Notes under the pieces: model-generated
The model's input: the letters and a program-made list of their open reading frames with translations, nothing else
Databases searched by the model: none
Told to the model about the DNA's origin: nothing
Assembly: GCA_051294905.1 (NCBI GenBank)
Contig: CM119371.1
Coordinates: 21,454,001-21,518,000 of the forward strand
From: Botryllus schlosseri
Taxonomy: Eukaryota
Reading direction: 5' to 3'
Length of the DNA: 64,000 nt
In this document: piece by piece, positions 7,001 through 43,582 of the stretch
How positions within the stretch are numbered: position 1 is the stretch's first letter
Layout: every line of letters starts with the position of its first letter
Position numbers and translations under genes: made by a program

Positions 7001-9457
7001 CCCAAATCTTCGTATATGACCATTAAGTAGAATATTTCATAACAGATATATTTGACTTGAAATTATTCTCGGTACTTCGCATGATTCATTGTCACTAGAT
7101 TTCTTGCATTCAGTATATTTGAGCCCCCTTCTGAAAATTAGAAATACCTATTATTCACAGAATTGAGTCTAACTATATTCGCAATTAGGAGATAACGTGT
7201 CGTCCAACAAGCGGCTTTGCTAGTGCACTCGCAGCGAGATCGTCGACAAAACATTTGCACGAAATGATAGAGGCATGCTCACTGATACCGTCGATTTTGC
7301 TATGTTTAAACGTCGAATAATACTGTCCTTGCCAAATGAGCCCAGTGGTATACAGATGCGACCCCCAATGTATGCTAGCAACATATTTATTGATATAATT
7401 CAGTCATTATCTTGCCAAAAAAATCGCGCTTCGCGCGACCAGAACCTGATTGCGCGCTGCACAGTTGTTTGACATATTGTTAGCAATTTTAGAGCGTATC
7501 AATATAAGTCTTGTTTGCAAAGTTACCTAATTCGGTTCGCTCCTATCGGACGACTAAAAATGGTTATCTACATTCCAGTTGCCCGCGCAATGGTTCGTAA
7601 ATCTCATGTGTCCCTTTGGCCGATATAGTTGCCCACCCCTGACATAGATAAAATTAGATATTACTTGGAAATTACAACTCAGTTGCAGAGGGGAAGAAAA
7701 TCGCAATATGCGTTTTCGCGATGCAGGCCAAATAGATGCAATTTTGGAATTATACCATGATACTGTGACATAGCAAATGCATCGGCTGGTTTTGTAAAAT
7801 TGTAAAAATGATGTAAATATGACCAAACGGTGCTTCCCACTTGACAAAATTAAAAATATTTGTAAGGTAGATTAGCTGTTTGGGTCGAACAGATGATTAA
7901 GAAAGACTGCAAGTCCCAATCCTTGATTAAGTACATGTAGACTAGACATAGGCTATGGTCTTTGACTTAACTAAATTCCATTTATGACCAATGTCTATTA
8001 GTAGTAAGAGTGTGTGTGCTTGTAATCAGGTGTGCAATGACAAAATTAGTAAGTTCAATCTCTTTATTAGTTGCTGAATCATACACAAGAGCTACACTTG
8101 GATTTTTTATCTACATTTTTATTATACATGATTGGATATCTGCCATATATGAATGATTCATACATTTCAGTATATTAGAGAGTCGATGTTATAAAAACTT
8201 GAAAACAAAGGATATTTAGCAAATCCTTCTTTCATGTTAATTGCATAGTGAATAATTCGAGCTGTTCCACAATGAAAGAATTTAGCACGCTACCGTTAAT
8301 CATATGTTTGCATATGTTTAATGGTTGTATGATAGTCATTCAACCGACAATGTGGCATATAATTTACGAAGTAAATTGGTAATAATGCTGGAGTCGGAGT
8401 CGGAGTCGGAGTCGGTACGTTTAAAGACCCTGGAGTTGGAGTCGGAGTCGGTACGTTTAAAGACTCAGGAATCGGAGTCGCAGTCGGTATATTGAAAATG
8501 TGTGGAGTCGGAGTCGGAGCCGGAGTCGGTGGTAAAATTTACCGACTCGACAGCGCTGATATAAAGATAAGCGATATCTAATCTCAAAATATTTGTTTGG
8601 ATTCAGTACAAATCAGAGCTGTTGAGTCGGCTCATATTGCCACTGACTCCAAGTCCGACTGCGACTCAAGAAATTTCTAACATACCTACTCCTGAAACTT
8701 GAAACACACAGACTCCGATTCCAGCTCCGACTCCTAATATTTTCTATAGAGAACTCTAACTCCGACTCAACATTTTCTGTACATCGACTCTGAAAATCAA
8801 AGCCGTTCATTACATTTTAGTTTAGACTTTTATCATGTCAATCAACCCATTTTTCCGAATATGGCAAAAATTCAAACGTGCTAAAATTCACTGACGTAAG
8901 AAATTGACCATTTGTGTCGTTGCAGTGGCACTTTTTAGAACCATTTAAGTGTAGTTGGTTGAGCATTTTAAAAATCAAGATTTAATTTTCCAAGTGACGT
9001 ATACATTTCTATGCCCAACCATTTTACACACGCATAATAATTCATTTACACTATCTTTGAATCCATAACTTTTACTTGAGGTAACTTTCCATACAATATA
9101 TATATATATATATATATATATTGCCTGCAAATTGCAGGAACAAATACTTCATGTTCAATAAAGTTGTTACGAGAATTTAATTCGATGCCCTAAAAGGATT
9201 GAATTCATGCCAGATAGGGGATTTATTTGGTCACCTCAAGTCAAGGATTTGTAGTTTGACATTTTATTTACAAAAAACTCGCACACTTACTCAGTTAATG
9301 CTCCTCTTATAAAAAATTTCATACTAGTCGTAATCATTGTCTCGTGTTTCAGGTTTTGCGAACGCAAATTATCAAATCCAGCGTGGAGATGCAGAGAAAA
9401 CGCCTCTGGAGTATTTGGATCGAATTAATGAATGAAAAGGCAAATGCTAAACATAAG
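1035..9457 (+). CDS. 5' exon cluster of a spliced host gene encoding a helical/coiled-coil protein resembling GBP/atlastin stalk bundles (5' end probably upstream of the window)
   Basis: AG/GT-bounded open exons 1035-1238, 1837-1905, 3213-3346, 3590-3652, 4345-4521, 6164-6232 and 9353-9457. DGGKQYETKYRDRLTEQI resembles the atlastin/GBP 'GG.E....Y...L...I' helix. The 3652/4345 junction is out of phase by 1 nt. Confidence 0.6.
1978..2168. mobile_element. hAT-type MITE
   Basis: TIRs CAATGTTCCCTCTAA / TTAGAAGGAACATTG; perfect 8-bp TSD GTTGTAGG. Confidence 0.9.
2682..2958. mobile_element. Diverged half-copy of the TAGGGCTCTTC foldback family
   Basis: Aligns by eye to the right half of 11146-11806. 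Confidence 0.7.
6514..8558. mobile_element. Non-autonomous hAT element with (GGAGTC)n subterminal arrays
   Basis: TIRs CAGGGCTGTGGAGTCGG / CCGACTCGACAGCGCTG; TSD ATATAAAG on both sides. Confidence 0.9.
6795..7641. mobile_element. Nested Charlie/Buster-like hAT element
   Basis: Ends CAGGTGCGGCCAGCC / AGTTGCCCACCCCTG; imperfect TSD ATACAGAT/ACATAGAT. Confidence 0.55.
8594..8795. mobile_element. Degenerate end of a GGAGTC-array hAT relative, inverted
   Basis: CAGAGCTGTTGAGTCGG start followed by decayed GACTCC repeats. Confidence 0.55.
9097..9121. repeat. (TA)n microsatellite
   Basis: Direct reading. Confidence 0.95.
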
Positions 9458-24962: not shown

Positions 24963-25274
24963 ACTACTACTACCTTACTCGCCACCGATAATAACATAGA
25001 TAAGGAGAGCAATAAACACCCAGCACGTAACCAACTATACGTCACGGGGGTCACAGAATACAAATGGTGGTCATACTGACCTGATTAGATATCTATATAG
25101 CCTACCCTACGCAACGCAAGCTACGACCTTTTGATATATTACTATTCCCCGTGACAGTTTCATATATTGTTGCGTCCGTAGGATTACCAGGTCACCGTTC
25201 CGAGTCGCAAGTCCTTCTTTGAATTAACGTTAGACCCGACTCAACTCGAGTCATTTTTATTTAATCACCCAGTC

Positions 25275-27079
25275 CAGTGCTTTTCAACCTGTGTGACGGT
25301 TCGCACTTGTGCGAATGAAAAAAATTGCAGTGCGAATGACGAAGGTGGTGCGAACGGTGCGAATGAAAATCCCGGATGAGTGCGAATGAAAATCGCGAAT
25401 GATAATTGTTAATTTTTCTGACCTGAAATATTTCAAATAGACCTAATAGGAAATTCAAGGGCAGTGTAACTTTTGTTGTTGCGACGCAATTGTAAAAAGT
25501 ACAGTATCATCCCGTCCGAGCCTGCGACAGGCTGAAAAAATGACGTCGAATTGACTTCCTGCTTTCCTTCGCTAAACAATCTTTCGTAATAACTGTTCGA
25601 TTAGTGCGAGACACGAGGATGGTAGTAAATAACATCATTGAAGACTCGCATTTGCAAGTTTTTGTAACGCAGATTTTTACCCCTTCAAGGGTTATGAAGG
25701 TATGGACCGCAAAGGGTATAATTTTTGGTGGACACGGTGCCAGAGCTATCTGTTAATGTGTATGTGATATTTGTTAAATTCATTGCAAAAAACCTGCGAT
25801 ATAGTTTTTACAAATCTAAGGTCACGGTGTTTGGTACTGTAGCCAGAAAATATGGCTTTATCATGATAAGATTTGTCCGACTGGTAAACATGGTCGATGA
25901 TGACCGTTGGGATGAACTAGTGTAGGGACTAGAGATGTGCAACGAGCGAGTTCAGGTCTGTGACACTCAGCCAGCCAGCCAGCCAGCCCCTTTTGCGTCG
26001 GGTTACATGAAGACGTAAAGTTCTGGTCAACAAACCTCTGATGTAAATGCGGTGCTAAAACATCGACAAAACCTTGGTCGAAAATGACCTATGCTGGATG
26101 GCCAAACCATTCGATATGGATATTCTCCGTTGTCGGCAGTGAATAGTCCCGTTCTTGCAATCTGAGTAGACTGCAGTAATACAACTGCGACACGTAGAGG
26201 AATTTAATTCACCCTAATTTGAGATCGCGTGCGTCATACATATTTTGTAGAGCTGTGTTGGATAGAATTGTGGTGTGCGCGTTCTGTATGTCATACATGT
26301 CCCATTGTCCGTAAAATCTTAACATATACTACTGTAATATTAAAAATGAATTCTTTTTCATGGGTGAGGCTCTGGTCGTGAGATGCGACAAAAACTCAGA
26401 TTTTGGTGTTAGTCCAAAAAGCTGCATTGACGTTATTAAACTGTTATGAATTCTCAAGTTAGATTAAGCTCAAGAGCAGAACACAGAGTATTGTGAGTTC
26501 AGTTGCTCTTCCCACATACTCGCGAGACAGAAAATGGGAATTCGAAAAAAAAGTTGGAGCAACTTATCATAAGGTAGCGAGCTCTAATATGCCTACTCTC
26601 CTTCATTGTTTGGACCTTATTTTCCAAAACATAATGCAAAAGCCTCAACACAAACAAGTGGGTTTTTCACCCTTTCGACATACTGGAGCCTAATAGAACT
26701 TTTTGTCAGCGCTCAAAATCGATTTCTTCCAGCAAGCATTTTTTAATTGTGAAAAAATACGTTGTATTTTGGATAGGAGTGCAGAACAGATTCTAAGACC
26801 TTGCCATCCAAGCACTAATAGACGTTCTTGTACAAAACCCAACAACGTGTTTGGACTGAAAGGGTTTTAGTGAAATTTTTGAAATCGAAACGAGCGAAAA
26901 TAGTAGCCTTTTTAATGAGACACTTGATAGCTTAAGACACACCAATTTGTTGCAAATCCGATCAAATAAATGTTGTATTTTCATATTCTTTCTGTATAAC
27001 AATTTTCGGTTTGTTTGTGCAAATGAAATTTATTTTACGAAAAAGTGCGAATGAAGCTTAAAAAGGTTGAAAAGCACTG
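25275..27079. mobile_element. hAT element with TGCGAATGA subterminal repeats; its right TSD is displaced by the 16-kb insertion
   Basis: Perfect TIR CAGTGCTTTTCAACC / GGTTGAAAAGCACTG; TSD ACCCAGTC at 25267-25274 and 43157-43164. Confidence 0.9.
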
Positions 27080-27233
27080 ACAGTATTATAGCCTGTCTTT
27101 ATACCCCCTCCAATCAGCGTCGAGTATTTGATCACGTGACATCTGTTAGCCAATCAGAATGCAGAAGGATGTGGGTTTGGTTCCAATACGAGAGAGGTTT
27201 TGGTTGAGCGAGAGATAGCATAGCTCCAGTCCA

Positions 27234-27680
27234 GTAACGCTGAGATATTTATTACGTCATTGCGTAAGTTGATTACCTATGATTGCGTATTGCAGCATGT
27301 TCATGATTGCGTCACATGCGTAGTTGATTACTTTATTTATTACGAGAGCGGCTTTGCTTAGTTCCACGTGTAACGCTGAGATATTTATTACGTCATTGAG
27401 TAAGTTGATTACCTATGATTGCGTATTGCAGCATGTTCATGATCACGTCATATGCGATTACTTTAGTTATTACGAGAGCGGCTTTGCTTAGTTCCAGTAA
27501 TGCTCAGATATGATTACGTTATGATTGCGTCTAGTTCCAGTCCAATAACACTGAGAAACACGTTAATACGATTGTGTAGTTGAAGCATGTTCATGATTAC
27601 GTCGTATGTGTAGTTGATTACTTTAGTAACACCGAGATATGATTACGTTAATATTGCGTTGATTGCCTTTGCAGTTGAAG
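27234..27680 (+). repeat. Subterminal tandem repeats (~130-bp x2 plus decayed units) rich in bZIP-like motifs; mirrored at ~42550-42997
   Basis: GTAACGCTGAGATATTTATTACGTCA... at 27234 and 27369; TTACGTCA, TTGCGTAA and TCACGTCA motifs. Confidence 0.85.
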
Positions 27681-27749
27681 CAAGTGCAAGGTAATATATA
27701 ACGTATAATATTTATTACATGATTATTCGCTGTAGGCTGTAGATTGAAT

Positions 27750-28037
27750 ATGTCAAAGATTACTGCTAATGATATATACGTCATAATGGATCGAATTGAC
27801 CTGATGAACTGGTATAGGTTTGCACGTGAAAAACTTGAGCTATCTGACAATGAAATTGCCGAATGTCAATACATGGATTGCTATAACTTAACTGAGCAAC
27901 GATATCAAATGATACAGTTATGGATTCGTAAAAATGGTCGTTACGCTACGATGAACAAACTTGAAGAATTAGTTCACAGCTGTCAGATACCTTCGAATAG
28001 CAATTCAAATGCTCTGTTGAAAGACATAACGTACTAA
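27750..28037 (+). CDS. Stand-alone death-domain protein (95 aa), left arm
   Basis: WYRFAREKLELSDNEI...LTEQRYQMIQLWIRKNGRYATMNKL matches the DD pattern W..(L/F)AR.L.LS..EI...L.EQ.YQML..W....G..AT...L. A likely 5'UTR intron lies at ~27691-27742. Confidence 0.85.
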   Translation: MSKITANDIYVIMDRIDLMNWYRFAREKLELSDNEIAECQYMDCYNLTEQRYQMIQLWIRKNGRYATMNKLEELVHSCQIPSNSNSNALLKDITY

Positions 28038-30890
28038 GAGGAGAATTGCGCGGACTAGTGAATAATGAAGATGCTCTCAGAAGACTTCAATATCGATGAA
28101 AATGGCTAATTTCACGTAAAATCATAAGATATTCTAATCATTGAAATCATGTAGATTATAACAGTGAACGTCTTTTGTACAAACTAATTCTTCAACAAGA
28201 TAATCAACAATTTAACGAAAACTCAAATAGATATTCACAAAGCAACAATATTAAAAAAAAGATGTTCACCGTTATAAGCCACAATGATGTCAATGAATAT
28301 AGAAAAAATATTAATAATATTAATACTCCTCAGTTAGAATGAAATATTTTAAAAGATTCAAATCATGTTTTGATTCTTATAATAACGTAAGCTAATTATT
28401 TTCATCAACATCACAAGATAATTGATAAATTAACTAAATAATAAATAAGATATTCACAAAGCAGCAATATTAATAAAATAATCAGTGGTAACAACACATG
28501 GAAATGGCTAATTTCACGCAATATTATAAGATATTCATATTACTAGGTAATTTTTTGATATTATTACGTTGATTTGTGTGTCAATATTAGTGTAAAATGA
28601 AAGCATTTTGTAGTGCATACGCTAAGGTACTGCGACACTATCCATTAACCAAGAAGGTATTCAGTTAATTCCCTATAGAGCACAGCTGTTGTCACAATGA
28701 AATGTTGACTATCGAATGAAGTTTATTATTGTGTATTGATAGGATACACCTTCATGAGGTTGCAAGGTATTTGAATTTTGTGTAGCGCTAATTCTAATTA
28801 AACTTGGAGCTTGTTGTACAAAAGATGTTCACCGTTATAAGCTACAATGATTTCAATGAATAATGAAAGAAATAATAATAATCATTAATATTCCAAAGTT
28901 GGAACCAAAGTAATAATACTTGAAAAATGAAATATTTTAAACATATTTAAATCCAGTAAATTGTACTTCTACTCCAAGTAGCAATTCGCCTACTGACTGG
29001 AATTTAATCGAATTTGGTATGCCGCAATCATAGAGAAAAAGTAGATTTTCTCAAATATTTGATGTAGGTATTTATTGTTAGCTGCTGTTATAGGGATATT
29101 TCGCAATAGCAGTGCATTCGTATCACCGACTGTTTGCGGTCAAAGGAGATCGCTATAGACCAATAAATTACTTATAGCGGAAATGATGTTGAGCTGTACC
29201 AACGTAGTTAACTATCAAGTTCATCGTTATACACAATGATTTATCATTGATTAATTATCCACTTCGATTCGAGAGTTCAATTGCAAATTTTTAATCATTT
29301 AGTACCATCTTTCATCAAATTCTATAAGTCTTGCATTATATTGAAATCCCAGAACAACTAGAAATATGTATTAAAAATCCAGTGACGTAAACATTTTGAT
29401 AGCACTGTGTAAATGACATATCGCAATATTATCACCCTACTCGCCTCACATATGTCTCACTAAACAATGCATTCGCTATTTAGTATTAATATTGTTCCAC
29501 GCATTAGCCTGCAAATGTAGTATAATATAATGAGATAAGATTGTTTGATATGCAGGTCGCGCATGAAGCAGATCTCTCCACCCTGTACTATAGTAATGTG
29601 TTAGATGTGTGCTCAAATGTTTATTGTGAATAAGACCAGTTACGCTCCAGCTACCGTGTTGGTTAACCCGTTGTGAAATTTCTGCGGCCATATCTTCACC
29701 GTCACACTTATACTCTACGCGAACGCTATATTGTAGCTTAATTTCTTTATGTAGTACGTGCAAACATATGATGTGTGTCTCTCAATTTCCTTTCAAAATC
29801 CATATGATACAACAGCTGGCCTCTACAGGGAATTAACTGAATACATTCTTGACCAATGGATCGTGTCGCAGTACCTTACCCTATGCACTACAAAATGCTA
29901 TCATTTTACACAGTAATAATGAGACACAAACCAAAGTAATGATATCAGAAAATTGCCTAATAATATGAATATCTTAAGATTTTTGCGTGAAATTAGCCAT
30001 TTTCTAGTGTTGTTATTGTTTCACTAGCACTGATTTTTCTAATAATATTGTTGCTTTGTGAACATCTTATTAATTTTTTAGTTAAAGTATCAATTATCTT
30101 GTGTTGTTGATGAAAATAATTAGCTTGTACAAAAGACGTTCACTATTAAAATATACACGATTTCAATGATTATTAAAAAATAAGCTGATGCAAGTTTCCA
30201 GAATGCTGATGCTAACTATGCTGTTGGAGCCTTTCCAAATAGCAATACGCAGTACAGTTATCGCAGATGGATGCAAAATAGTCCTAATTCTCAACAATTT
30301 GAATTGTCTCGAAATCACACTTATTGCGATATCAAATCCCCGCATTTAGTTGTATTTAGGGCTATTGCACAAGCTATCTCCAATATGCTGCAATATAGAG
30401 AGGTTCAAACTTGTCTAGGGTATTCACTTCCCGTCAACTAGCTTTTAAAGACACATTGATAAGCGCGCCTATTTAATTACCTAATTTTCTTGACTGTCTT
30501 CGAATATTTCATCGACTATCATAAGGAACATTCGCTCATCGCTCATCATTCGCTCATCATATATATATTACATTGACTTTAATATCACTATAACGGAACT
30601 ATAACGAAATATGATGTGTATGAGAGCTGTCGGTGTAAATCAAGAAGTAAGCATATAATAGGTGTATGTAGCAGGTTTTCACCATAATGTAGGGTGCTTA
30701 TCAACAATTTTTGTATATCGAATGTTTGTAGCTCTAGGAAGATATTCGTATTGGAGACTACGATTATATCTTCAAGAATATCAACATAACCAGCATATCA
30801 ACCAGAACTTTTAGGTTCGTTTTCCGATAGAAACCTCGGAAATATCTCATCATAAGCAGCGTATTACGCTTACTCTTGGCTGTTCCATCA

Positions 30891-31057
30891 AGCTCCGTAC
30901 ACCTTGATCTTTTCGGATACATTGGCATTGCGGAATATGCAACGTTCAGCATTGGATGAACATTCCTAACAAAGGCATAGGTGTCCCCAGGGAACCAAGC
31001 TAACTTCGCTTCTATTCTTTTACATTGTTTGCAAAGCACGGTATTTTGTAATTCCAT
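30891..31057 (-). pseudogene. IAP-type RING-HC finger pseudogene, left arm
   Basis: Mirror of 39174-39340. Confidence 0.7.
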
Positions 31058-31694
31058 GAGACTTCAGTGGTTCTAGAATACAAAATTATTGAGAGTCGAA
31101 TAAACTGTCAATTAACTAAGCATAAAGTATATGATATTCAAAAATATTTAAAGGTTACGTCGTTGAACAACCCCGATATGATCATACAGCGAAAGTATAG
31201 CCCCAAATAGCGCTAATATCTCCCAAGCATAAACAATAACGTGGTCGAAATGTACGTTTTATTGCAAATTTATCTCTAAACAGAATGAGCTGTAGCTTAT
31301 CACATTCGAATTACTGAGTGAAATTGACATAGAACTATTAGGTCAAGCCGAAACATCTTCACTTCAGTTATCATTCCCATGGGGCTACTAGTTATAGCAG
31401 AGGCGGGCAAACTGCGATTCGCGCCTGTAGCACTTTATTGATTTCACGTGCGTTTCGCTATTTTGTTAAAGAAGTTCAACCTGATTATATGTTAATGCAT
31501 CTATAGCGTATTAGAAATATGCGAATGGTGGCCCTATACAGCCTTCGAAATTAGCAATTGAACTCTCGAATTCAACCTGATCATCAATCAATGACAAATC
31601 ATTGTTTTCAACGCTATTTTTTGTGGTTCACTGACTCACAACCTTTAGTGACCCGCAGAGCACTTACGTTAGTTGAACTTTGGCCTCAGTTGGA

Positions 31695-32287
31695 CTGTAG
31701 ATTACTAACCTACGGATAGATACGCAAGTCCCGTCGTTACGCTCCGACAAGCAGTTACACTTGTTGCTGAGCAATCCAAAAGAAGCATAATTGGTGGAGT
31801 TATAGCTTGCGTCCCGAGGGCTGAAATGTAATGAAACTGGTCTTAATCGAGAGCTACTGCCTCACTGATTCCGAAAATACAAATTCAAATCGTGCCGGGG
31901 ATATGGAACCACCTCAAAACATCTCTCAAAATCTGAAAATCGACATAGTTCCAACAATGGCACCACCGCAACAGGATGAACATAACAATGGCCAATTTCG
32001 TCAAGCGATTGTTCAGAGCAATTTCGATTTTCAGACTTTGAGGGATGGTTTGACATGGTTCCATTTCCTGACAAGATTTTAATTTGTATTCTCAGAATCA
32101 GTGCGACAGTAGCTCTCGATTAAGAGACCAGTTTCAATAAATTTCACCTCTCAGGTCGCAAGTTGTAATACCACCAATTATGGTGCTTTTAGATTGCTGA
32201 GCAATAAGTGTAACTGCTTGCCGGAGCGTAACGACGGGACTTGCGTATCTATCCGTAGGTTAGTAATCTATAGTTTTACCACCCCTG
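31695..32287. mobile_element. MITE with ~200-bp TIRs inside the left arm (mirrored at ~37943-38536)
   Basis: 31695-31895 is inverted against 32068-32272; hAT-like ACCACCCCTG right end. Confidence 0.75.
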
Positions 32288-32451
32288 CTCTAAACCATAA
32301 CCATAACAACTTGAGTAAGTACTGTCACTAGGCAAACCCTAGCAGAGTTATGCTCAAATTATATCAAATATTGCATGGAATATGGCAAATGAACACGCCA
32401 AGTATTATCAAGTGAAGGAAAACGAACGCCTAATTCCCTCTAGATACATAT

Positions 32452-34818
32452 TTATTCGGAAAATCTCCCATTACAGGGTGAGTACAGTTGATTTCTCAAG
32501 GTCTTCCTATCTTCCCCACTTAAGCGCGGTAAGACTAGTTTGACTTCGCGGCATTCAGGATTATATCTCACGAAGCTCTGAATGGAATTCACGTATTTCA
32601 CGTCGACTATCGTTCTGTTGCTATCACTGAGGTCGATTGCCTTTAGCTGTTCATTGAATAATAGGCGATTTAGATCAATTTAAAAAATACAGAAACGAAC
32701 TGCATCGCTACATCGGGATCTACTATTGAGCAGAAAGATCTTACTGTAGCGCATCGCTTTCCCGTCTCTTCGCTCAGATTCCTGATTTGCATGGAAAGCA
32801 TCTTGCAATTACTCAGATTAAATTCTTCCACACGGGAATTGCACAGGACTTTAGTTAGTGTTTTGTAGCAGGATGAAATGCCAGGATTTCTACTTAAATC
32901 CAGCGAGTGCAGCTAAAACATGGTGTAATGTTCAAATATTTTACGAGACTACAAATGACTCGACACCTGTAATAGATTAGTCATAATATTATTTATCAAC
33001 AGTTGAGCAATTTTCGCGATGTCTGCTCCTAATAGCAAAACTGATGCAACACCGAAGACAATAATGAAGCTCGAAAGGTTATTGAAGAAACCATCTAAAC
33101 TAGATTTAAAATGAATGAACGATTGAAAAAACCTCTTGCTTAGAAGCAGTGATAGTATTTATTTTCAGACGTGATCAGAAACACTTTATTGATGATAAAA
33201 GTTCTATCGATCGATGAAATGTCATGCTTGAGTATGACTGAAACTCACATAAGCATTAGACTGTGATTGATTATTTCAGTTACAAAACATAACGGATCTA
33301 GTTCAAATGATCACCTCATGAATTCCGAGACCTTTATTTAATAAGATTAGTGAGTCTTCGTCCAATTCGCAAGCTGAAAGTCGAACGTTTTTCGTGTTAT
33401 GCTTTCTTACAAAGCATCCAACTTCTTTCAAACCTGTCGGTTCCATATCCGTATTATAACTCAGATCAAGGTTTTCGACCTACAATTACAGTAATTTATT
33501 TCAAAATGACACACAAAACTATAGAAACGAGTGAGTACCTCGATAGAAGCAAAACTTTCAAAAGCGCGAATTTCCTCTGGTGTAAGGTCACACCCCTTCA
33601 TGATAAGAGTAACCGCTTTGTCTTTACAAAGTAAGGCAGGCAGCGCGGTCATACACTCTTCATCCAGCTGATTGTAGCTGATGTCAAGATATTGGAGCTG
33701 AACAAATATAGGAAACTGTCAATTTACGATCAGCATTGATCAGATATAAAACATTTCAAACTGATAACAGAAAAAAAATGTTGATTAGCCACTCACGTCA
33801 TAATATACGCGAAATGTGCTAAGAGTAAACTAGAATTTCCTCTATCCATCCATCTCTGTACAATCGCTCACACAGAATGTGATCATTAACGACTATACCC
33901 AGCAATAATCGCACATACCTTACTGTTTTTGAGCTGTAGAGCAACGAAATCTTTTGACTGCAAGTGCGAGTTCACAAGTGACAAATAGGTTAGATCGTTC
34001 GAAATAATAGTCGCGAGTTGCGTAAAGTTAATGTTTTCCCCGTAGCTGAGATTGAGGTTTCGTAATTTCACCTATGGGAACGAGGTATTAGGAAACCTCA
34101 CTTCGAGAGGTTCTATACTAGATTAGCGCCTAGCTTTTCCCATCATCAATACCTGATGCCGCCTGATAAGTTGATCCAAAATGATTAGAAAATCTTCGGA
34201 TCCATCACTTTCTTCCAGATTGAGCTCCGTCAAACCACACTCCTTCATCAACTCGCATATTACTGGGAGGAGGTTTTCAATGTTGTCGTGTGCTGTAACG
34301 CTGAGTTTTCTTATTTCGACCTGAACGAGCGCAAAACTTCACACATAAAATGCTAAATGAGCTATGAACAGTTTAACACTGATCAACTTTAGCTATAGCC
34401 TATCTAATAAGGCTATTGAGACTGATTCCTATACAAGTAGCAATTGAGCATTGTTCGCTACGTTACCTTCAATTCTCGCCTTAACACATCAGTAATAGGG
34501 AACAACGCGATTACGATAAAAGTTTTTTTAAAGTCGTATCTGAATACTTATATTGAACGTGAATTTATAATGATCAGTGACTACGAGTGAATGTGTGAAG
34601 GCGTTTACCACAAATTCAAATCCACGAATTTTATCCAGTAGAATCTTTACGAGGTTTTCATTGAGATCGCATTGGCGAAATTCTAACTCATACACGCGAC
34701 ATTGCTGAATAAGACCATTCGCGATATTATGTATATCCAATTCAGTCGTAGTTTGGTCATAGAGCCCATAAGGAATATTCACGTCATCATGATCCGTAAG
34801 TACTAATTGATGGTACAT
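32452..34818 (-). CDS. 7-exon RI/NLR-type leucine-rich repeat protein, left arm
   Basis: Mirror of 35412-37778 with a few substitutions. Confidence 0.8.
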
Positions 34819-35098
34819 CCTCTTTTCAGCTTAAGGATGTAAACTAAAAAATGTTGTATGCCGCCCTGATGAGTTTAATTATAATATACTTATAATGGTA
34901 CAGTGATTTTTCAATAACGAAACTCTTTTACAGCATGAGCAGAATAATTTCATAATAAACATAAAATACCTGCTGTCGATGATTTGTACTAATTTGCGGC
35001 GCGTTCAATTAACTCATGCGGCTCAAAAATATAGTAAGCATGGCGATTGGTATTCGTTGAGTTGAATAAACATTAAAAACAATATATTTCCGCGCCCT

Positions 35099-35131
35099 CC
35101 TAAACCTAATTCCTCCTAACCCTACAACCCA
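35099..35131. other. 33-bp non-palindromic loop at the palindrome centre, CCCTAA-like
   Basis: CCGCGCCCT[CCTAAACCTAATTCCTCCTAACCCTACAACCCA]AGGGCGCGG. Confidence 0.9.
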
Positions 35132-35411
35132 AGGGCGCGGAAATATATTGTTTTTAATGTTTATTCAACTCAACGAATACCAATCGCCATGCTTACTATA
35201 TTTTTGAGCCGCATGAGGTAATTGAACGCGCCGCAAATTAGTACAAATCATCGACAGCAGGTATTTTATGTTTATTATGAAATTATTCTGCTCATGCTGT
35301 AAAAGAGTTTCGTTATTGAAAAATCACTGTACCATTATAAGTATATTATAATTAAACTCATCAGGGAGGCATACAACATTTTTTAGTTTACATCCTTAAG
35401 CTGAAAAGAGG

Positions 35412-37778
35412 ATGTACCATCAATTAGTACTTACGGATCATGATGACGTGAATATTCCTTATGGGCTCTATCACCAAACTACGACTGAATTGGATATACA
35501 TAATATCGCGAATGGTCTTATTCAGCAATGTCGCGTGTATGAGTTAGAATTTCGCCAATGCGATCTCAATGAAAACCTCGTAAAGATTCTACTGGATAAA
35601 ATTCGTGGATTTGAATTTGTGGTAAACGCCTTCACACATTCACTCGTAGTCACTGATCATTATAAATTCACGTTCAATATAAGTATTCAGATACGACTTT
35701 AAAAAAACTTTTATCGTAATCGCGTTGTTCCCTATTACTGATGTGTTAAGGCGAGAATTGAAGGTAACGTAGCGAACAATGCTCAATTGCTACTTGTATA
35801 GGAATCAGTCTCAATAGCCTTATTAGATAGGCTATAGCTAAAGTTGATCAGTGTTAAACTGTTCATAGCTCATTTAGCATTTTATGTGTGAAGTTTTGCG
35901 CTCGTTCAGGTCGAAATAAGAAAACTCAGCGTTACAGCACACGACAACATTGAAAACCTCCTCCCAGTAATATGCGAGTTGATGAAGGAGTGTGGTTCGA
36001 CGGAGCTCAATCTGGAAGAAAGTGATGGATCCGAAGATTTTCTAATCATTTTGGATCAACTTATCAGGCGGCATCAGGTATTGATGATGGGAAAAGCTAG
36101 GCGCTAATCTAGTATAGAACCTCTCGAAGTGAGATTTCCTAATACCTCGTTCCCATAGGTGAAATTACGAAACCTCAATCTCAGCTACGGGGAAAACATT
36201 AACTTTACGCAACTCGCGACTATTATTTCGAACGATCTAACCTATTTGTCACTTGTGAACTCGCACTTGCAGTCAAAAGATTTCGTTGCTCTACAGCTCA
36301 AAAACAGTAAGGTATGTGCGATTATTGCTGGGTATAGTCGTTAATGATCACATTCTGTGTGAGCGATTGTACAGAGATGGATGGATAGAGGAAATTCTAG
36401 TTTACTCTTAGCACATTTCGCGTATATTATGACGTGAGTGGCTAATCAACATTTTTTTTCTGTTATCAGTTTGAAATGTTTTATATCTGATCAATGCTGA
36501 TCGTAAATTGACAGTTTCCTATATTTGTTCAGCTCCAATATCTTGACATCAGCTACAATCAGCTGGATGAAGAGTGTATGACCGCGCTGCCTGCCTTACT
36601 TTGTAAAGACAAAGCGGTTACTCTTATCATGAAGGGGTGTGACCTTACACCAGAGGAAATTCGCGCTTTTGAAAGTTTTGCTTCTATCGAGGTACTCACT
36701 CGTTTCTATAGTTTTGTGTGTCATTTTGAAATAAATTACTGTAATTGTAGGTCGAAAACCTTGATCTGAGTTATAATACGGATATGGAACCGACAGGTTT
36801 GAAAGAAGTTGGATGCTTTGTAAGAAAGCATAACACGAAAAACGTTCGACTTTCAGCTTGCGAATTGGACGAAGACTCACTAATCGTATTAAATAAAGGT
36901 CTCGGAATTCATGAGGTGATCATTTGAACTAGATCCGTTATGTTTTGTAACTGAAATAATCAATCACAGTCTAATGCTTATGTGAGTTTCAGTCATACTC
37001 AAGCATGACATTTCATCGATCGATAGAACTTTTATCATCAATAAAGTGTTTCTGATCACGTCTGAAAATAAATACTATCACTGCTTCTAAGCAAGAGGTT
37101 TTTTCAATCGTTCATTCATTTTAAATCTAGTTTAGATGGTTTCTTCAATAACCTTTCGAGCTTCATTATTGTCTTCGGTGTTGCATCAGTTTTGCTATTA
37201 GGAGCAGACATCGCGAAAATTGCTCAACTGTTGATAAATAATATTATGACTAATCTATTACAGGTGTCGAGTCATTTGTAGTCTCGTAAAATATTTGAAC
37301 ATTACACCATGTTTTAGCTGCACTCGCTGGATTTAAGTAGAAATCCTGGCATTTCATCCTGCTACAAAACACTAACTAAAGTCCTGTGCAATTCCCGTGT
37401 GGAAGAATTTAATCTGAGTAATTGCAAGATGCTTTCCATGCAAATCAGGAATCTGAGCGAAGAGACGGGAAAGCGATGCGCTACAGTAAGATCTTTCTGC
37501 TCAATAGTAGATCCCGATGTAGCGATGCAGTTCGTTTCTGTATTTTTTAAATTGATCTAAATCGCCTATTATTCAATGAACAGCTAAAGGCAATCGACCT
37601 CAGTGATAGCAACAGAACGATAGTCGACGTGAAATACGTGAATTCCATTCAGAGCTTCGTGAGATATAATCCTGAATGCCGCGAAGTCAAACTAGTCTTA
37701 CCGCGCTTAAGTGGGGAAGATAGGAAGACCTTGAGAAATCAACTGTACTCACCCTGTAATGGGAGATTTTCCGAATAA
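35412..37778 (+). CDS. 7-exon RI/NLR-type leucine-rich repeat protein (~405 aa), right arm
   Basis: Phase-0 GT-AG exons 35412-35621, 35910-36077, 36159-36311, 36533-36691, 36751-36915, 37318-37485 and 37584-37778. Motifs include LRNLNLSYG, LQYLDISYNQL, VENLDLSYN, LHSLDLSRNP and LKAIDLSDS. Internal exons are 51-56 codons. Confidence 0.85.
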
Positions 37779-39173
37779 ATATGTATCTAGAGGGAATTAG
37801 GCGTTCGTTTTCCTTCACTTGATAATACTTGGCGTGTTCATTTGCCATATTCCATGCAATATTTGATATAATTTGAGCATAACTCTGCTAGGGTTTGCCT
37901 AGTGACAGTACTTACTCAAGTTGTTATGGTTATGGTTTAGAGCAGGGGTGGTAAAACTATAGATTACCAACCTACGGATAGATACGCAAGTCCCGTCGTT
38001 ACGCTCCGGCAAGCAGTTACACTTATTGCTCAGCAATCTAAAAGCACCATAATTGGTGGTATTACAACTTGCGACCTGAGAGGTGAAATTTATTGAAACT
38101 GGTCTCTTAATCGAGAGCTACTGTCGCACTGATTCTGAGAATACAAATTAAAATCTTGTCAGGGAAATGGAACCATGTCAAACCATCCCTCAAAGTCTGA
38201 AAATCGAAATTGCTCTGAACAATCGCTTGACGAAATTGGCCATTGTTATGTTCATCCTGTTGCGGTGGTGCCATTGTTGGAACTATGTCGATTTTCAGAT
38301 TTTGAGAGATGTTTTGAGGTGGTTCCATATCCCCGGCACGATTTGAATTTGTATTTTCGGAATCAGTGAGGCAGTAGCTCTCGATTAAGACCAGTTTCAT
38401 TACATTTCAGCCCTCGGGACGCAAGCTATAACTCCACCAATTATGCTTCTTTTGGATTGCTCAGCAACAAGTGTAACTGCTTGTCGGAGCGTAACGACGG
38501 GACTTGCGTATCTATCCGTAGGTTAGTAATCTACAGTCCAACTGAGGCCAAAGTTCAACTAACGTAAGTGCTCTGCGGGTCACTAAAGGTTGTGAGTCAG
38601 TGAACCACAAAAAATAGCGTTGAAAACAATGATTTGTCATTGATTGATGATCAGGTTGAATTCGAGAGTTCAATTGCTAATTTCGAAGGCTGTATAGGGC
38701 CACCATTCGCATATTTCTAATACGCTATAGATGCATTAACATATAATCAGGTTGAACTTCTTTAACAAAATAGCGAAACGCACGTGAAATCAATAAAGTG
38801 CTACAGGCGCGAATCGCAGTTTGCCCGCCTCTGCTATAACTAGTAGCCTCATGGGAATGATAACTGAAGTGAAGATGTTTCGGCTTGACCTAATAGTTCT
38901 ATGTCAATTTCACTCAGTAATTCGAATGTGATAAGCTACAGCTCATTCTGTTTAGAGATAAATTTGCAATAAAACGTACATTTCGACCACGTTATTGTTT
39001 ATGCTTGGGAGATATTAGCGCTATTTGGGGCTATACTTTCGCTGTATGATCATATCGGGGTTGTTCAACGACGTAACCTTTAAATATTTTTGAATATCAT
39101 ATACTTTATGCTTAGTTAATTGACAGTTTATTCGACTCTCAATAATTTAGTATTCTAGAACCACTGAAGTCTC

Positions 39174-39342
39174 ATGGAATTACAAAATACCGTGCTTTGC
39201 AAACAATGTAAAAGAATAGAAGCGAAGTTAGCTTGGTTCCCTGGGGACACCTATGCCTTTGTTAGGAATGTTCATCCAATGCTGAACGTTGCATATTCCG
39301 CAATGCCAATGTATCCGAAAAGATCAAGGTGTACGGAGCTTG
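39174..39342 (+). pseudogene. IAP-type RING-HC finger pseudogene, right arm
   Basis: MELQNTVLCKQCKRIEAKLAWFP, then a 1-nt frameshift to GHLCLC*ECSSNAERCIFRNANVSEKIKVYGA*. This is a C-terminal IAP-like RING with a frameshift, a TAG stop and loss of the last Cys. Confidence 0.75.
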
Positions 39343-42193
39343 ATGGAACAGCCAAGAGTAAGCGTAATACGCTGCTTATGATGAGATATTTCCGAGGTTT
39401 CTATCGGAAAACGAACCTAAAAGTTCTGGTTGATATGCTGGTTATGTTGATATTCTTGAAGATATAATCGTAGTCTCCAATACGAATATCTTCCTAGAGC
39501 TACAAACATTCGATATACAAAAATTGTTGATAAGCACCCTACATTATGGTGAAAACCTGCTACATACACCTATTATATGCTTACTTCTTGATTTACACCG
39601 ACAGCTCTCATACACATCATATTTCGTTATAGTTCCGTTATAGTGATATTAAAGTCAATGTAATATATATATGATGAGCGAATGATGAGCGATGAGCGAA
39701 TGTTCCTTATGATAGTCGATGAAATATTCGAAGACAGTCAAGAAAATTAGGTAATTAAATAGGCGCGCTTATCAATGTGTCTTTAAAAGCTAGTTGACGG
39801 GAAGTGAATACCCTAGACAAGTTTGAACCTCTCTATATTGCAGCATATTGGAGATAGCTTGTGCAATAGCCCTAAATACAACTAAATGCGGGGATTTGAT
39901 ATCGCAATAAGTGTGATTTCGAGACAATTCAAATTGTTGAGAATTAGGACTATTTTGCATCCATCTGCGATAACTGTACTGCGTATTGCTATTTGGAAAG
40001 GCTCCAACAGCATAGTTAGCATCAGCATTCTGGAAACTTGCATCAGCTTATTTTTTAATAATCATTTAAATCGTGTATATTTTAATAGTGAACGTCTTTT
40101 GTACAAGCTAATTATTTTCATCAACAACACAAGATAATTGATACTTTAACTAAAAAATTAATAAGATATTAACAAAGCAACAATATTATTAGAAAAATCA
40201 GTGCTAGTGAAACAATAACAACACTAGAAAATGACTAATTTCACGCAAAAATCTTAAGATATTCATATTATTAGGCAATTTTCTGATATCATTACTTTGG
40301 TTTGTGTCTCATTATTACTGTGTAAAATGATAGCATTTTGTAGTGCATAGGGTAAGGTACTGCGACACGATCCATTGGTCAAGAATGTATTCAGTTAATT
40401 CCCTGTAGAGGCCAGCTGTTGTATCATATGGATTTTGAAAGGAAATTGAGAGACACACATCATATGTTTGCACGTACTACATAAAGAAATTAAGCTACAA
40501 TATAGCGTTCGCGTAGAGTATAAGTGTGACGGTGAAGATATGGCCGCAGAAATTTCACAACGGGTTAACCAACACGGTAGCTGGAGCGTAACTGGTCTTA
40601 TTCACAATAAACATTTGAGCACACATCTAACACATTACTATAGTACAGGGTGGAGAGATCTGCTTCATGCGCGACCTGCATATCAAACAATCTTATCTCA
40701 TTATATTATACTACATTTGCAGGCTAATGCGTGGAACAATATTAATACTAAATAGCGAATGCATTGTTTAGTGAGACATATGTGAGGCGAGTAGGGTAAT
40801 AATATTGCGATATGTCATTTACACAGTGCTATCAAAATGTTTACGTCACTGGATTTTTAATACATATTTCTAGTTGTTCTGGGATTTCAATATAATGCAA
40901 GACTTATAGAATTTGATGAAAGATGGTACTAAATGATTAAAAATTTGCAATTGAACTCTCGAATCGAAGTGGATAATTAATCAATGATAAATCATTGTGT
41001 ATAACGATGAACTTGATAGTTAACTACGTTGGTACAGCTCAACATCATTTCCGCTATAAGTAATTTATTGGTCTATAGCGATCTCCTTTGACCGCAAACA
41101 GTCGGTGATACGAATGCACTGCTATTGCGAAATATCCCTATAACAGCAGCTAACAATAAATACCTACATCAAATATTTGAGAAAATCTACTTTTTCTCTA
41201 TGATTGCGGCATACCAAATTCGATTAAATTCCAGTCAGTAGGCGAATTGCTACTTGGAGTAGAAGTACAATTTACTGGATTTAAATATGTTTAAAATATT
41301 TCATTTTTCAAGTATTATTACTTTGGTTCCAACTTTGGAATATTAATGATTATTATTATTTCTTTCATTATTCATTGAAATCATTGTAGCTTATAACGGT
41401 GAACATCTTTTGTACAACAAGCTCCAAGTTTAATTAGAATTAGCGCTACACAAAATTCAAATACCTTGCAACCTCATGAAGGTGTATCCTATCAATACAC
41501 AATAATAAACTTCATTCGATAGTCAACATTTCATTGTGACAACAGCTGTGCTCTATAGGGAATTAACTGAATACCTTCTTGGTTAATGGATAGTGTCGCA
41601 GTACCTTAGCGTATGCACTACAAAATGCTTTCATTTTACACTAATATTGACACACAAATCAACGTAATAATATCAAAAAATTACCTAGTAATATGAATAT
41701 CTTATAATATTGCGTGAAATTAGCCATTTCCATGTGTTGTTACCACTGATTATTTTATTAATATTGCTGCTTTGTGAATATCTTATTTATTATTTAGTTA
41801 ATTTATCAATTATCTTGTGATGTTGATGAAAATAATTAGCTTACGTTATTATAAGAATCAAAACATGATTTGAATCTTTTAAAATATTTCATTCTAACTG
41901 AGGAGTATTAATATTATTAATATTTTTTCTATATTCATTGACATCATTGTGGCTTATAACGGTGAACATCTTTTTTTTAATATTGTTGCTTTGTGAATAT
42001 CTATTTGAGTTTTCGTTAAATTGTTGATTATCTTGTTGAAGAATTAGTTTGTACAAAAGACGTTCACTGTTATAATCTACATGATTTCAATGATTAGAAT
42101 ATCTTATGATTTTACGTGAAATTAGCCATTTTCATCGATATTGAAGTCTTCTGAGAGCATCTTCATTATTCACTAGTCCGCGCAATTCTCCTC

Positions 42194-42481
42194 TTAGTAC
42201 GTTATGTCTTTCAACAGAGCATTTGAATTGCTATTCGAAGGTATCTGACAGCTGTGAACTAATTCTTCAAGTTTGTTCATCGTAGCGTAACGACCATTTT
42301 TACGAATCCATAACTGTATCATTTGATATCGTTGCTCAGTTAAGTTATAGCAATCCATGTATTGACATTCGGCAATTTCATTGTCAGATAGCTCAAGTTT
42401 TTCACGTGCAAACCTATACCAGTTCATCAGGTCAATTCGATTCATTATGACGTATATATCATTAGCAGTAATCTTTGACAT
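42194..42481 (-). CDS. Stand-alone death-domain protein, right arm
   Basis: Mirror of 27750-28037 with one D/N difference. Confidence 0.85.
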   Translation of the reverse strand: MSKITANDIYVIMNRIDLMNWYRFAREKLELSDNEIAECQYMDCYNLTEQRYQMIQLWIRKNGRYATMNKLEELVHSCQIPSNSNSNALLKDITY

Positions 42482-43582
42482 ATTCAATCTACAGCCTACA
42501 GCGAATAATCATGTAATAAATATTATACGTTATATATTACCTTGCACTTGCTTCAACTGCAAAGGCAATCAACGCAATATTAACGTAATCATATCTCGGT
42601 GTTACTAAAGTAATCAACTACACATACGACGTAATCATGAACATGCTTCAACTACACAATCGTATTAACGTATTTCTCAGTGTTATTGGACTGGAACTAG
42701 ACGCAATCATAACGTAATCATATCTGAGCATTACTGGAACTAAGCAAAGCCGCTCTCGTAATAACTAAAGTAATCGCATATGACGTGATCATGAACATGC
42801 TGCAATACGCAATCATAGGTAATCAACTTACTCAATGACGTAATAAATATCTCAGCGTTACACGTGGAACTAAGCAAAGCCGCTCTCGTAATAAATAAAG
42901 TAATCAACTACGCATGTGACGCAATCATGAACATGCTGCAATACGCAATCATAGGTAATCAACTTACGCAATGACGTAATAAATATCTCAGCGTTACTGG
43001 ACTGGAACTATGCTATCTCTCGCTCAACCAAAACCTCTCTCGTATTGGAACCAAACCCACATCCTTCTGCATTCTGATTGGCTAACAGATGTCACGTGAT
43101 CAAATACTCGACGCTGATTGGAGGGGGTATAAAGACAGGCTATACTACTACTACTGACCCAGTCAATCCGAAATCGAGTAACTGTACGAGAAGGTCGCAC
43201 CAAACCAAATCGCAATCTTCAGTCACGAATCATTAACAGGTCATGTTTTGTCATCATGAACTAGAAATGTCACGTATTAGCTGATCTTCTACCGCATGGC
43301 AGCTTGTAAAAGTGATCTGATAGAGAAGTTTGTTGACATTTCAGTGATTTTTATTGCAGTTTGAGCGTGAACTGCAAGCTGTCACATCTAAAGAATAGAT
43401 ATGGCACTTCAATATATCGTTGAATACTTGGTGACGTCATGGCTTTAAAAAACATAAATAGCATAAAAAACATATTTTAAATTAGGGCCCTTGTTTTAAA
43501 TGAAACCATAACTATATGGATGCAGACGTAGCCTATACGCCGGAATACTAGCGATACATGTTAGCCGTATCACTCCTTAAGG

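Follow-up and report, generated by a model that had tools for sequence, protein, structure and literature searches.

The stretch of DNA analysed here is a 64,000-nt window of Botryllus schlosseri (GCA_051294905.1, contig CM119371.1, 21,454,001-21,518,000), and it contains a 16,071-bp palindrome at window positions 27082-43152. Palindromic from end to end, the element is a non-autonomous derivative of Polinton/Maverick and belongs to a recently transposed family. Genome-wide searches covered the 495-Mb, 219-contig assembly; loci found there are named by contig (C1, C11, C14 and so on), and the present copy, which lies on C1, is called WIN. A repeat search together with a base-by-base comparison confirmed the palindrome claimed in the original prediction: arms of 8,017 and 8,018 nt surround a 33-nt loop and are 99.76% identical, with 18 substitutions and a single 1-nt indel between them. 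An inverted repeat of 8 kb is far above chance expectation, and the window contains no N.

The boundaries of WIN can be read from the DNA into which it was inserted. WIN interrupts a 1.8-kb hAT-like repeat with a 15-bp terminal inverted repeat (TIR), CAGTGCTTTTCAACC, and with an 8-bp duplication, ACCCAGTC. The left copy of this duplication is whole, while the right copy is split into AC before the palindrome and CCAGTC behind it. Both ends of WIN are flanked by the 6-bp target-site duplication ACTGAC, and in-silico removal of WIN with one ACTGAC restores the 8-bp duplication exactly, with the junction GCACTGACCCAGTC. Among other copies of the hAT-like repeat, 36 of the 39 listed stop at most one base from query position 398, the CACTG end at window position 27079, and the remaining three stop at 396-397. 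The end of the hAT-like repeat and its restored duplication thus fix the boundaries and the 6-bp duplication independently of WIN itself. The TIRs of WIN open with 5'-AG and AGT units (AGTATT... and AGTAGTAGTAT...), as Polinton ends do, and the 6-bp length of the duplication is likewise that of Polintons. The left end, AGTATTATAGCC, carries one AGT, one fewer than the family-typical AGTAGTATTATA, and the right end, read as the reverse complement from 43152, is AGTAGTAGTATAGCC with three AGT. The termini, the duplication and the restored empty site were therefore all as originally predicted.

WIN is one of many copies. The first 600 bp of WIN gave 62 scored matches in the genome (40 of 173 candidates were scored), most of them in inverted pairs separated by 10-32 kb. 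With a 400-bp probe whose end lies in the loop, for which 40 of 582 candidates were scored, 25 sites showed abutting plus and minus matches, and a probe taken from another type of arm added 12 back-to-back centres, giving at least 37 palindrome centres; abutting matches denote a local palindrome centre and are not proof of whole-element symmetry. Internal symmetry was therefore compared in seven non-autonomous pairs, and six of them (C11:14.11 Mb, C10, C1:3.29 Mb, C11:10.71 Mb, C4 and C9) show palindromic symmetry along essentially the whole element, their arms being 99.0-99.9% identical. Seven of the nine end-pairs read carry perfect 6-mer target-site duplications, all different (ACTGAC, CATTTC, CACATT, CGATTG, AGTATG, CCAGTG and TAAACA), so that several copies sit at unrelated sites, each with a duplication of its own, as the original prediction had anticipated. 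The span is 14.5-17.0 kb in 9 of the 13 non-autonomous pairs, compared with 17.4 kb for an autonomous element of the same genome described below. In the copy at C14:8.07 Mb, the right end was not found at the position predicted by symmetry in the 301 bases read.

Some loci are larger or contain more than one centre. The member at C15:22387154-22419452 spans 32 kb between perfect CCAGTG duplications, with an off-centre axis and ~16 kb of extra DNA in one arm, and a near-identical right half of it lies at the very start of contig C1 (C1:1-14859). Two centres 8-12 kb apart are found at C2:17023875-17047138, C16:3.65 Mb, C8:4.63 Mb, C11:8.55 Mb and C4:27.24 Mb, which suggests tandem or nested arrays of palindromic elements. 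In a comparison of sequencing runs with positions 26500-35200, contigs 90-99% like the arm also turned up in sea-water metagenomes and in runs that carry the names of other organisms. The occurrence of the family, or of close relatives, under more than one species label could be due to related hosts, environmental DNA or transfer.

The symmetry axis itself is conserved. The 33-nt loop consists of degenerate, telomere-like CCTAA/CCCTAA units and is closed by a GC clamp, CCGCGCCCT/AGGGCGCGG; loop and clamp are identical in four sequenced centres (WIN, C11a, C14b and C9). In the copy at C11:10.71 Mb (C11b), the loop has a few changes and lies inside a wider unpaired centre of 92 nt, with a slightly longer CCTAA-type array. 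The copy at C1:3.29 Mb has another loop of 26 nt, which, to judge from a comparison of the copies, probably goes back to a symmetric central deletion of ~250 bp. In C10, a run of 100 Ns interrupts the loop exactly at the axis (C10:27399377-27399491, approximately 8902-9001 of the C10 stretch), where the assembly broke or was scaffolded. An exact search with the 51-nt axis sequence returned no match in viral_contigs and none in metagenome_contigs. It is pure conjecture that the telomere-like loop may record telomerase healing of a broken linear molecule before it folded back.

The copy at C11:14.11 Mb is WIN in the opposite orientation, with different flanks and a different duplication. The left arm of WIN and the right arm of the C11 copy differ by one mismatch and a 932-bp hAT-type insertion, and the right arm of WIN and the left arm of the C11 copy by one mismatch. 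Of the 19 differences between the arms, 17 are common to the two loci, which indicates that both arms were faithfully copied in the last movement and that the palindrome moved as a unit. The otherwise identical ends of the two copies differ by one AGT unit (one versus two repeats). The 932-bp insertion is a miniature element (TIR CAGTGTTGGGAT, 8-bp duplication GTAATTAA) at 4678-5609 of the C11 stretch; since it is present in the right arm only, it arrived after integration.

These data also bear on whether the second arm exists at all. It could have arisen in assembly, for instance through long reads that are fold-back chimeras, and the true insert would then be an 8-kb element or something else. 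The N run at the C10 axis indicates that assemblers struggle there. Of the 23 sequencing runs listed, all of them DNA or of unknown kind, 19 contain at least part of the stretch, and all consist of short contigs; in the four that were compared with positions 26500-35200, the pieces are at most ~0.6 kb long and none is listed across the axis. Against this, an element end is present at both junctions of WIN and the two together restore the duplication of the hAT-like repeat; at least 37 centres at separate loci have diverged sequence and the same architecture, with proper 6-bp duplications; and the 17 arm differences that recur at another locus in flipped orientation rule out a fold-back artefact. 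An artefactual second arm is thus extremely improbable.

Among the pairs read, the only one with long open reading frames (ORFs) is a 17,421-bp element at C14:22577273-22594693, with a 331-bp TIR (99.7% identity) and the 6-bp duplication TAAACA. Pfam identifies an rve integrase (PF00665, E=2.1e-13) with a chromodomain and a Pox_A32-type packaging ATPase. A 1,310-amino-acid ORF had no significant match in the Pfam or solved-structure searches; it has 454 homologues at E<=1e-5, and 95 of the best 120 contain PF03175, the family of organellar and viral protein-primed polymerases. Because of these homologues, and because family-B polymerase motifs are visible in the translation, we identify the ORF as the polymerase. 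For a capsid there was only a weak double-jelly-roll match (E=0.15), which we do not count as evidence. The element also encodes a Bcl-2 homologue (E=1.5e-18), an E2 ubiquitin-conjugating enzyme (E=2.2e-48) and a 95-amino-acid death-domain-only protein, which are apoptosis/ubiquitin accessory genes of the type seen in animal DNA viruses. At least 12 copies of the polymerase with unbroken frames and 91-100% identity exist in the genome, besides more distant families.

Polintons are defined by a protein-primed polymerase and a retrovirus-like integrase (PMC5499653), and by this definition the C14 element is a Polinton. Its ends, duplication and size also agree with the description of Mavericks, which have AGT-repeat ends, 6-bp duplications, a constrained size of ~17 kb and, in vertebrates, TIRs of 46-1,447 bp (PMC8097293). 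Polinton ends in the B. schlosseri genome begin with AGTAGTAT, in seven copies with AGTAGTATTATA, and are ~89% identical to WIN over 300 bp. The seven loci starting with AGTAGTATTATA adjoin unbroken polymerase genes; they share their first 12 nt with the palindromes and match the first 300 bp of WIN at 88-90%, so that autonomous elements sharing the TIR do exist, as the original prediction had proposed. We assign WIN to the Polintons because its ends match those of autonomous Polintons of the same genome and its 6-bp duplication is typical of their integrase; this sequence relationship supports the earlier view of a non-autonomous derivative.

The arms contain little coding capacity (Table 1). 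The left arm with the loop has 11 stop-to-stop ORFs of at least 80 amino acids, the longest of 107 amino acids, and a Pfam scan of 48 ORFs found no polymerase, integrase (rve), ATPase, capsid or protease gene in the arm, in line with the absence of core genes noted before. Over arm positions 24-1014, WIN matches the right, polymerase-side end of the C14 autonomous element at 89.8% identity, and this stretch includes a death-domain gene (Pfam E=3.4e-11). The gene is intact in both arms, in the autonomous Polinton, where it has four synonymous changes and one replacement (97% amino-acid identity), and in the C9 copy, with seven synonymous changes and one replacement; in the C10 copy it is truncated. 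The excess of silent changes suggests that the gene is under selection. It is the Polinton's own gene and not foreign cargo. Other Polinton remnants in the arm derive from the 261-amino-acid ORF listed in Table 1, a 213-amino-acid ORF and the Bcl-2 gene (18 amino acids).

Table 1 Features of WIN and its flanks (window positions)
Feature	Position	Strand	Remark
Left 8-bp duplication of the hAT-like repeat, ACCCAGTC	25267-25274	.	Intact
hAT-like non-autonomous repeat, host of the insertion	25275-27079	+	TIR CAGTGCTTTTCAACC; CACTG end at 27079
Left target-site duplication ACTGAC	27076-27081	.	Includes AC (27080-27081) of the split right 8-bp duplication
Left arm	27082-35098	+	8,017 nt
Terminal region homologous to the autonomous Polinton TIR	27082-27450	+	Starts AGTATTATAGCC
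Death-domain-only gene, left-arm copy	27750-28037	+	95 amino acids, intact; Pfam
Segment between ~300-nt inverted repeats (84-89%), probably a nested repeat	28389-30126	.	Mirror 40105-41842
60-amino-acid fragment (77% identity) of the autonomous Polinton's 261-amino-acid ORF	29005-29184	-	Arm positions 1924-2103
Nested 581-bp foldback-type high-copy repeat	31694-32274	.	Mirror 37956-38537
Short ORFs with RI-type leucine-rich-repeat-like motifs, putative coding	32455-34830	-	
33-nt loop, symmetry axis	35099-35131	.	
Right arm	35132-43152	-	8,018 nt paired (to 43149) and 3 extra terminal nt; end AGTAGTAGTATAGCC
Death-domain gene, right-arm copy	42194-42481	-	Intact; one private change, D14N
Right target-site duplication ACTGAC	43153-43158	.	
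CCAGTC, remainder of the right 8-bp duplication of the hAT-like repeat	43159-43164	.	Completed by AC (27080-27081)

Nested repeats make up part of the rest of the arm. The 581-bp repeat is an imperfect foldback, its halves ~82% complementary, with 2,886 first-look candidates genome-wide and stand-alone copies elsewhere. At least 10 palindromic copies carry it in each arm, at positions that mirror one another. We rejected this mirrored placement as proof of arm-to-arm copying, since the insertion may predate the formation of the palindrome. Leucine-rich-repeat (LRR)-like short ORFs fill a 3.4-kb stretch of the arm; their Pfam matches are below threshold (E=0.002 and 0.036), and a search for homologues of an LRR-like ORF among longer proteins found none. 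The language-model neighbours of this ORF are LRR clusters with few features in common (151/256), which is a lead only. RING domains had no Pfam match at E<=0.05 among the 48 ORFs scanned. Thus, of the death-domain, LRR and RING cargo originally predicted, the first stands, the second is marginal and the third was not recovered, and the idea that cargo has taken the place of the viral genes does not hold. The arms are instead what remains of a Polinton end, namely the TIR, the death-domain gene and pieces of three further Polinton ORFs, together with nested repeats and LRR-like sequence.

The two arms of a copy resemble each other more than they resemble the arms of other copies. In a common 3.4-kb segment (1.4 kb for one arm) of five copies, the distance between arms within a copy is 0.00-0.21%, versus 0.33-1.9% between copies, and in C10, C9 and C14b the two arms of each copy are mutual closest relatives. 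The arms of C10, C9 and C4 are rearranged compared with WIN, with deletions and an inverted 1.5-kb segment, and every rearrangement is mirrored in both arms. Events that clearly came after integration are one-sided: C11 has its 932-bp insertion in one arm only, as C11:10.71 Mb has ~1.25 kb and C15 has ~16 kb.

We propose a mechanistic model for these observations, which we consider probable with some reserve: WIN would be a helper-dependent palindromic Polinton derivative that replicates through a snap-back cycle, alternating between a hairpin monomer and a tail-to-tail dimer, at near unit length. The concerted arms and the mirrored changes require that the palindrome be made anew, time and again, from a single arm, and this cycle is the simplest scheme that would do so. 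The starting form would be a half-molecule of ~8 kb, with a Polinton end on one side and a snap-back (hairpin) end at the conserved GC-clamped loop on the other. An end-primed, strand-displacing polymerase would copy from the Polinton end round the hairpin and give a 16-kb tail-to-tail dimer that has working ends on both sides. Resolution of the axis as a cruciform, or snap-back of the displaced self-complementary strand, would then regenerate half-molecules or hairpins. Passage through a half-molecule would re-equalise both arms, which is our proposed reason for the near-identity of arms within a copy and for the mirrored rearrangements, and a dimer copied straight through would keep its arm differences, as between WIN and the C11 copy. 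We infer that the helper's protein-primed polymerase copies the WIN family and that the helper's integrase inserts it. The palindromes are probably packaged in the helper's capsid, since they measure 14.5-17.0 kb and the helper 17.4 kb. By analogy, the WIN family would correspond, in nature, to the defective virus genomes that depend on a helper.

The same identity is conceivable with no hairpin stage at all. One ancient accident, for example a tail-to-tail fusion or a single template switch, could have been followed by faithful copying of the 16-kb duplex, the arms being kept alike by gene conversion in the chromosome, a process well known between palindrome arms in other systems. The same loop and clamp in diverged copies agree with such a single origin, and the carriage of 17 of 19 arm differences through one transposition also favours this scenario. 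However, the one-sided insertions in C11, C11b and C15 indicate that homogenisation in place is not fast, the large rearrangements of C10, including the inverted 1.5-kb segment, are nonetheless perfectly mirrored, and the clustering of total length near the helper's size is left unexplained. We regard this scenario as a serious rival, though rather unlikely.

Several observations weigh against the snap-back cycle. The hairpin and dimer forms, the replication and the packaging are all deduced from integrated copies. The 19 arm differences outlived at least one transposition, so that a half-molecule stage is not obligatory; concerted arms could also come from chromosomal arm-to-arm gene conversion, and the common centre may be inherited from one founding event. 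The arm is colinear with the helper only over about its first 1 kb, the remainder being fragments, nested repeats and unrelated sequence, so that it is not one contiguous stretch of the helper, as it would be in a copy-back genome. Some family members deviate: the C3 element is palindromic in part only, the duplications are imperfect in two of the nine end-pairs (C3 with 5/6 bases, C11:10.71 Mb with 4/6 bases), and the elements of C15 (32 kb) and C2 (23 kb) lie outside the size window. Finally, in the four runs compared with 26500-35200, no piece is listed across the loop. At 27079, the loose contig ends of these runs are lost among those from other copies of the hAT-like repeat, which has 1,563 first-look candidates genome-wide and a very high contig depth in sequencing runs.

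Another explanation concerns why the palindromes persist. They could be kept chiefly as hairpin-RNA loci, with read-through double-stranded RNA giving small RNAs that silence the Polintons sharing the end region and the death-domain gene. The support is structural, namely near-perfect arms, parts of which match the helper at 89-97% identity, and many copies. This leaves the ends, the duplications and the size clustering unexplained; it is compatible with either replication model and replaces neither, and as the main reason for persistence we think it improbable. RNA silencing also forms part of a bolder version of the snap-back cycle, which we offer tentatively. In that version, the Polintons of this animal support a hairpin-monomer/palindromic-dimer cycle, and their defective derivatives are unit-length self-complementary genomes that are copied, packaged and inserted by the helper; they would make up a heritable, transmissible satellite of the "defective interfering" kind that accompanies an endogenous animal virus; 8-kb hairpin transcripts may feed small-RNA silencing of the helper, and the variation in AGT count would be the footprint of jump-back priming.

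Together, our results indicate that the WIN family is a new structural variant of Polinton/Maverick, with a testable bearing on Polinton replication. To our knowledge, the replication and movement of Polintons/Mavericks is a model inferred from their genes, and replication intermediates have never been seen. A large, young family of whole-element palindromes would provide genomic footprints of this replication: integrase-type duplications, AGT ends in which sister copies differ by one repeat, rearrangements mirrored in both arms, and a length close to one unit. By analogy with adenoviral vectors, in which this has been shown, palindromic dimers would be the expected product of a strand-displacing, end-primed polymerase on a template with one good end and one snap-back end. 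Under the model, hairpin-capped molecules of half length should exist, and particles should contain 16-kb palindromic DNA; the family would serve as a naturally occurring satellite, or defective-genome, system of an endogenous virus in an animal. Given that long palindromes are usually unstable, it is unexpected that an animal genome can keep dozens of near-perfect 16-kb palindromes whose spacers measure 33 nt. For annotation, the lesson is that such loci are real and should not be taken for fold-back assembly errors.

In a full-text literature search, no account was found of Polinton derivatives that are palindromic throughout; subscription journals and Repbase entries lay beyond its reach, and an unindexed description is possible. 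The element is far from alone in its genome, and the impression that it has no published equivalent has so far stood. Several known systems share part of its architecture. Like foldback-type transposons (FB, Galileo) and foldback miniature inverted-repeat transposable elements, WIN has very long inverted arms and little or no unique middle. Foldback transposons have arms made of internal tandem repeats, and their transposases come from other superfamilies and leave duplications of other lengths. The arms of WIN, in contrast, are complex sequence with Polinton ends, a 6-bp duplication and gene remnants, which sets WIN apart from the foldback class.

Another parallel is found in copy-back or snap-back defective interfering genomes, in which one genome end is inverted and duplicated, genes are lost and a helper is needed. 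Both arms of WIN open with the right-end sequence of the helper (TIR and death-domain gene), so that two inverted copies of one genome end meet at the axis. Copy-back defective interfering genomes are usually transient products of infection, whereas the WIN form is heritable, integrated, multi-copy and diversified, and its arm is not one contiguous helper piece. Palindromic products of phi29 replication in vitro were reportedly described in 1997, and older work concerns hairpin or palindromic derivatives of yeast linear plasmids and defective adenovirus genomes; neither is used as evidence here.

The proposed cycle is just how engineered adenoviral "dual hybrid" genomes (adenovirus/adeno-associated virus, Ad/AAV) behave. 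These carry an adenoviral end on one side and, on the other, a repeat that can form a hairpin; their palindromic dimers are preferentially packaged for size, and resolution at the axis gives monomers (PMC2518115). The proposed WIN cycle would likewise involve a protein-primed replicon in which a functional end and a hairpin end yield a dimer with two functional ends. Dual hybrid genomes differ in being engineered, in having no transposon-like integration and in carrying a parvoviral repeat at the axis, where WIN has its 33-nt telomere-like loop and GC clamp.

The nearest items in the literature concern palindromes and gene-bearing inverted repeats in Polintons and their relatives. Some virophages and polinton-like viruses, mostly those without a protein-primed polymerase, have 52-nt terminal palindromes, and a model of hairpin-primed replication is proposed for their integrated relatives (preprint 10.64898/2026.07.28.741278); the palindromes described there lie at the tips of the elements and do not span the whole element as in WIN. 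Butterfly polintons have gene-bearing TIRs of ~2 kb and therefore two gene copies per element (preprint 10.1101/2025.02.07.637071). The butterfly elements described keep a unique core with the essential genes, while in WIN the inverted repeat takes up the whole element. Compared with autonomous Polintons/Mavericks themselves, WIN has the same AGT-repeat ends, 6-bp duplication, size of ~16-17 kb, common terminal sequence and death-domain accessory gene. It differs from them in having no polymerase, integrase, ATPase, protease or capsid genes and in a "TIR" that is the whole element, 2 x 8 kb as opposed to the 331 bp of the helper.

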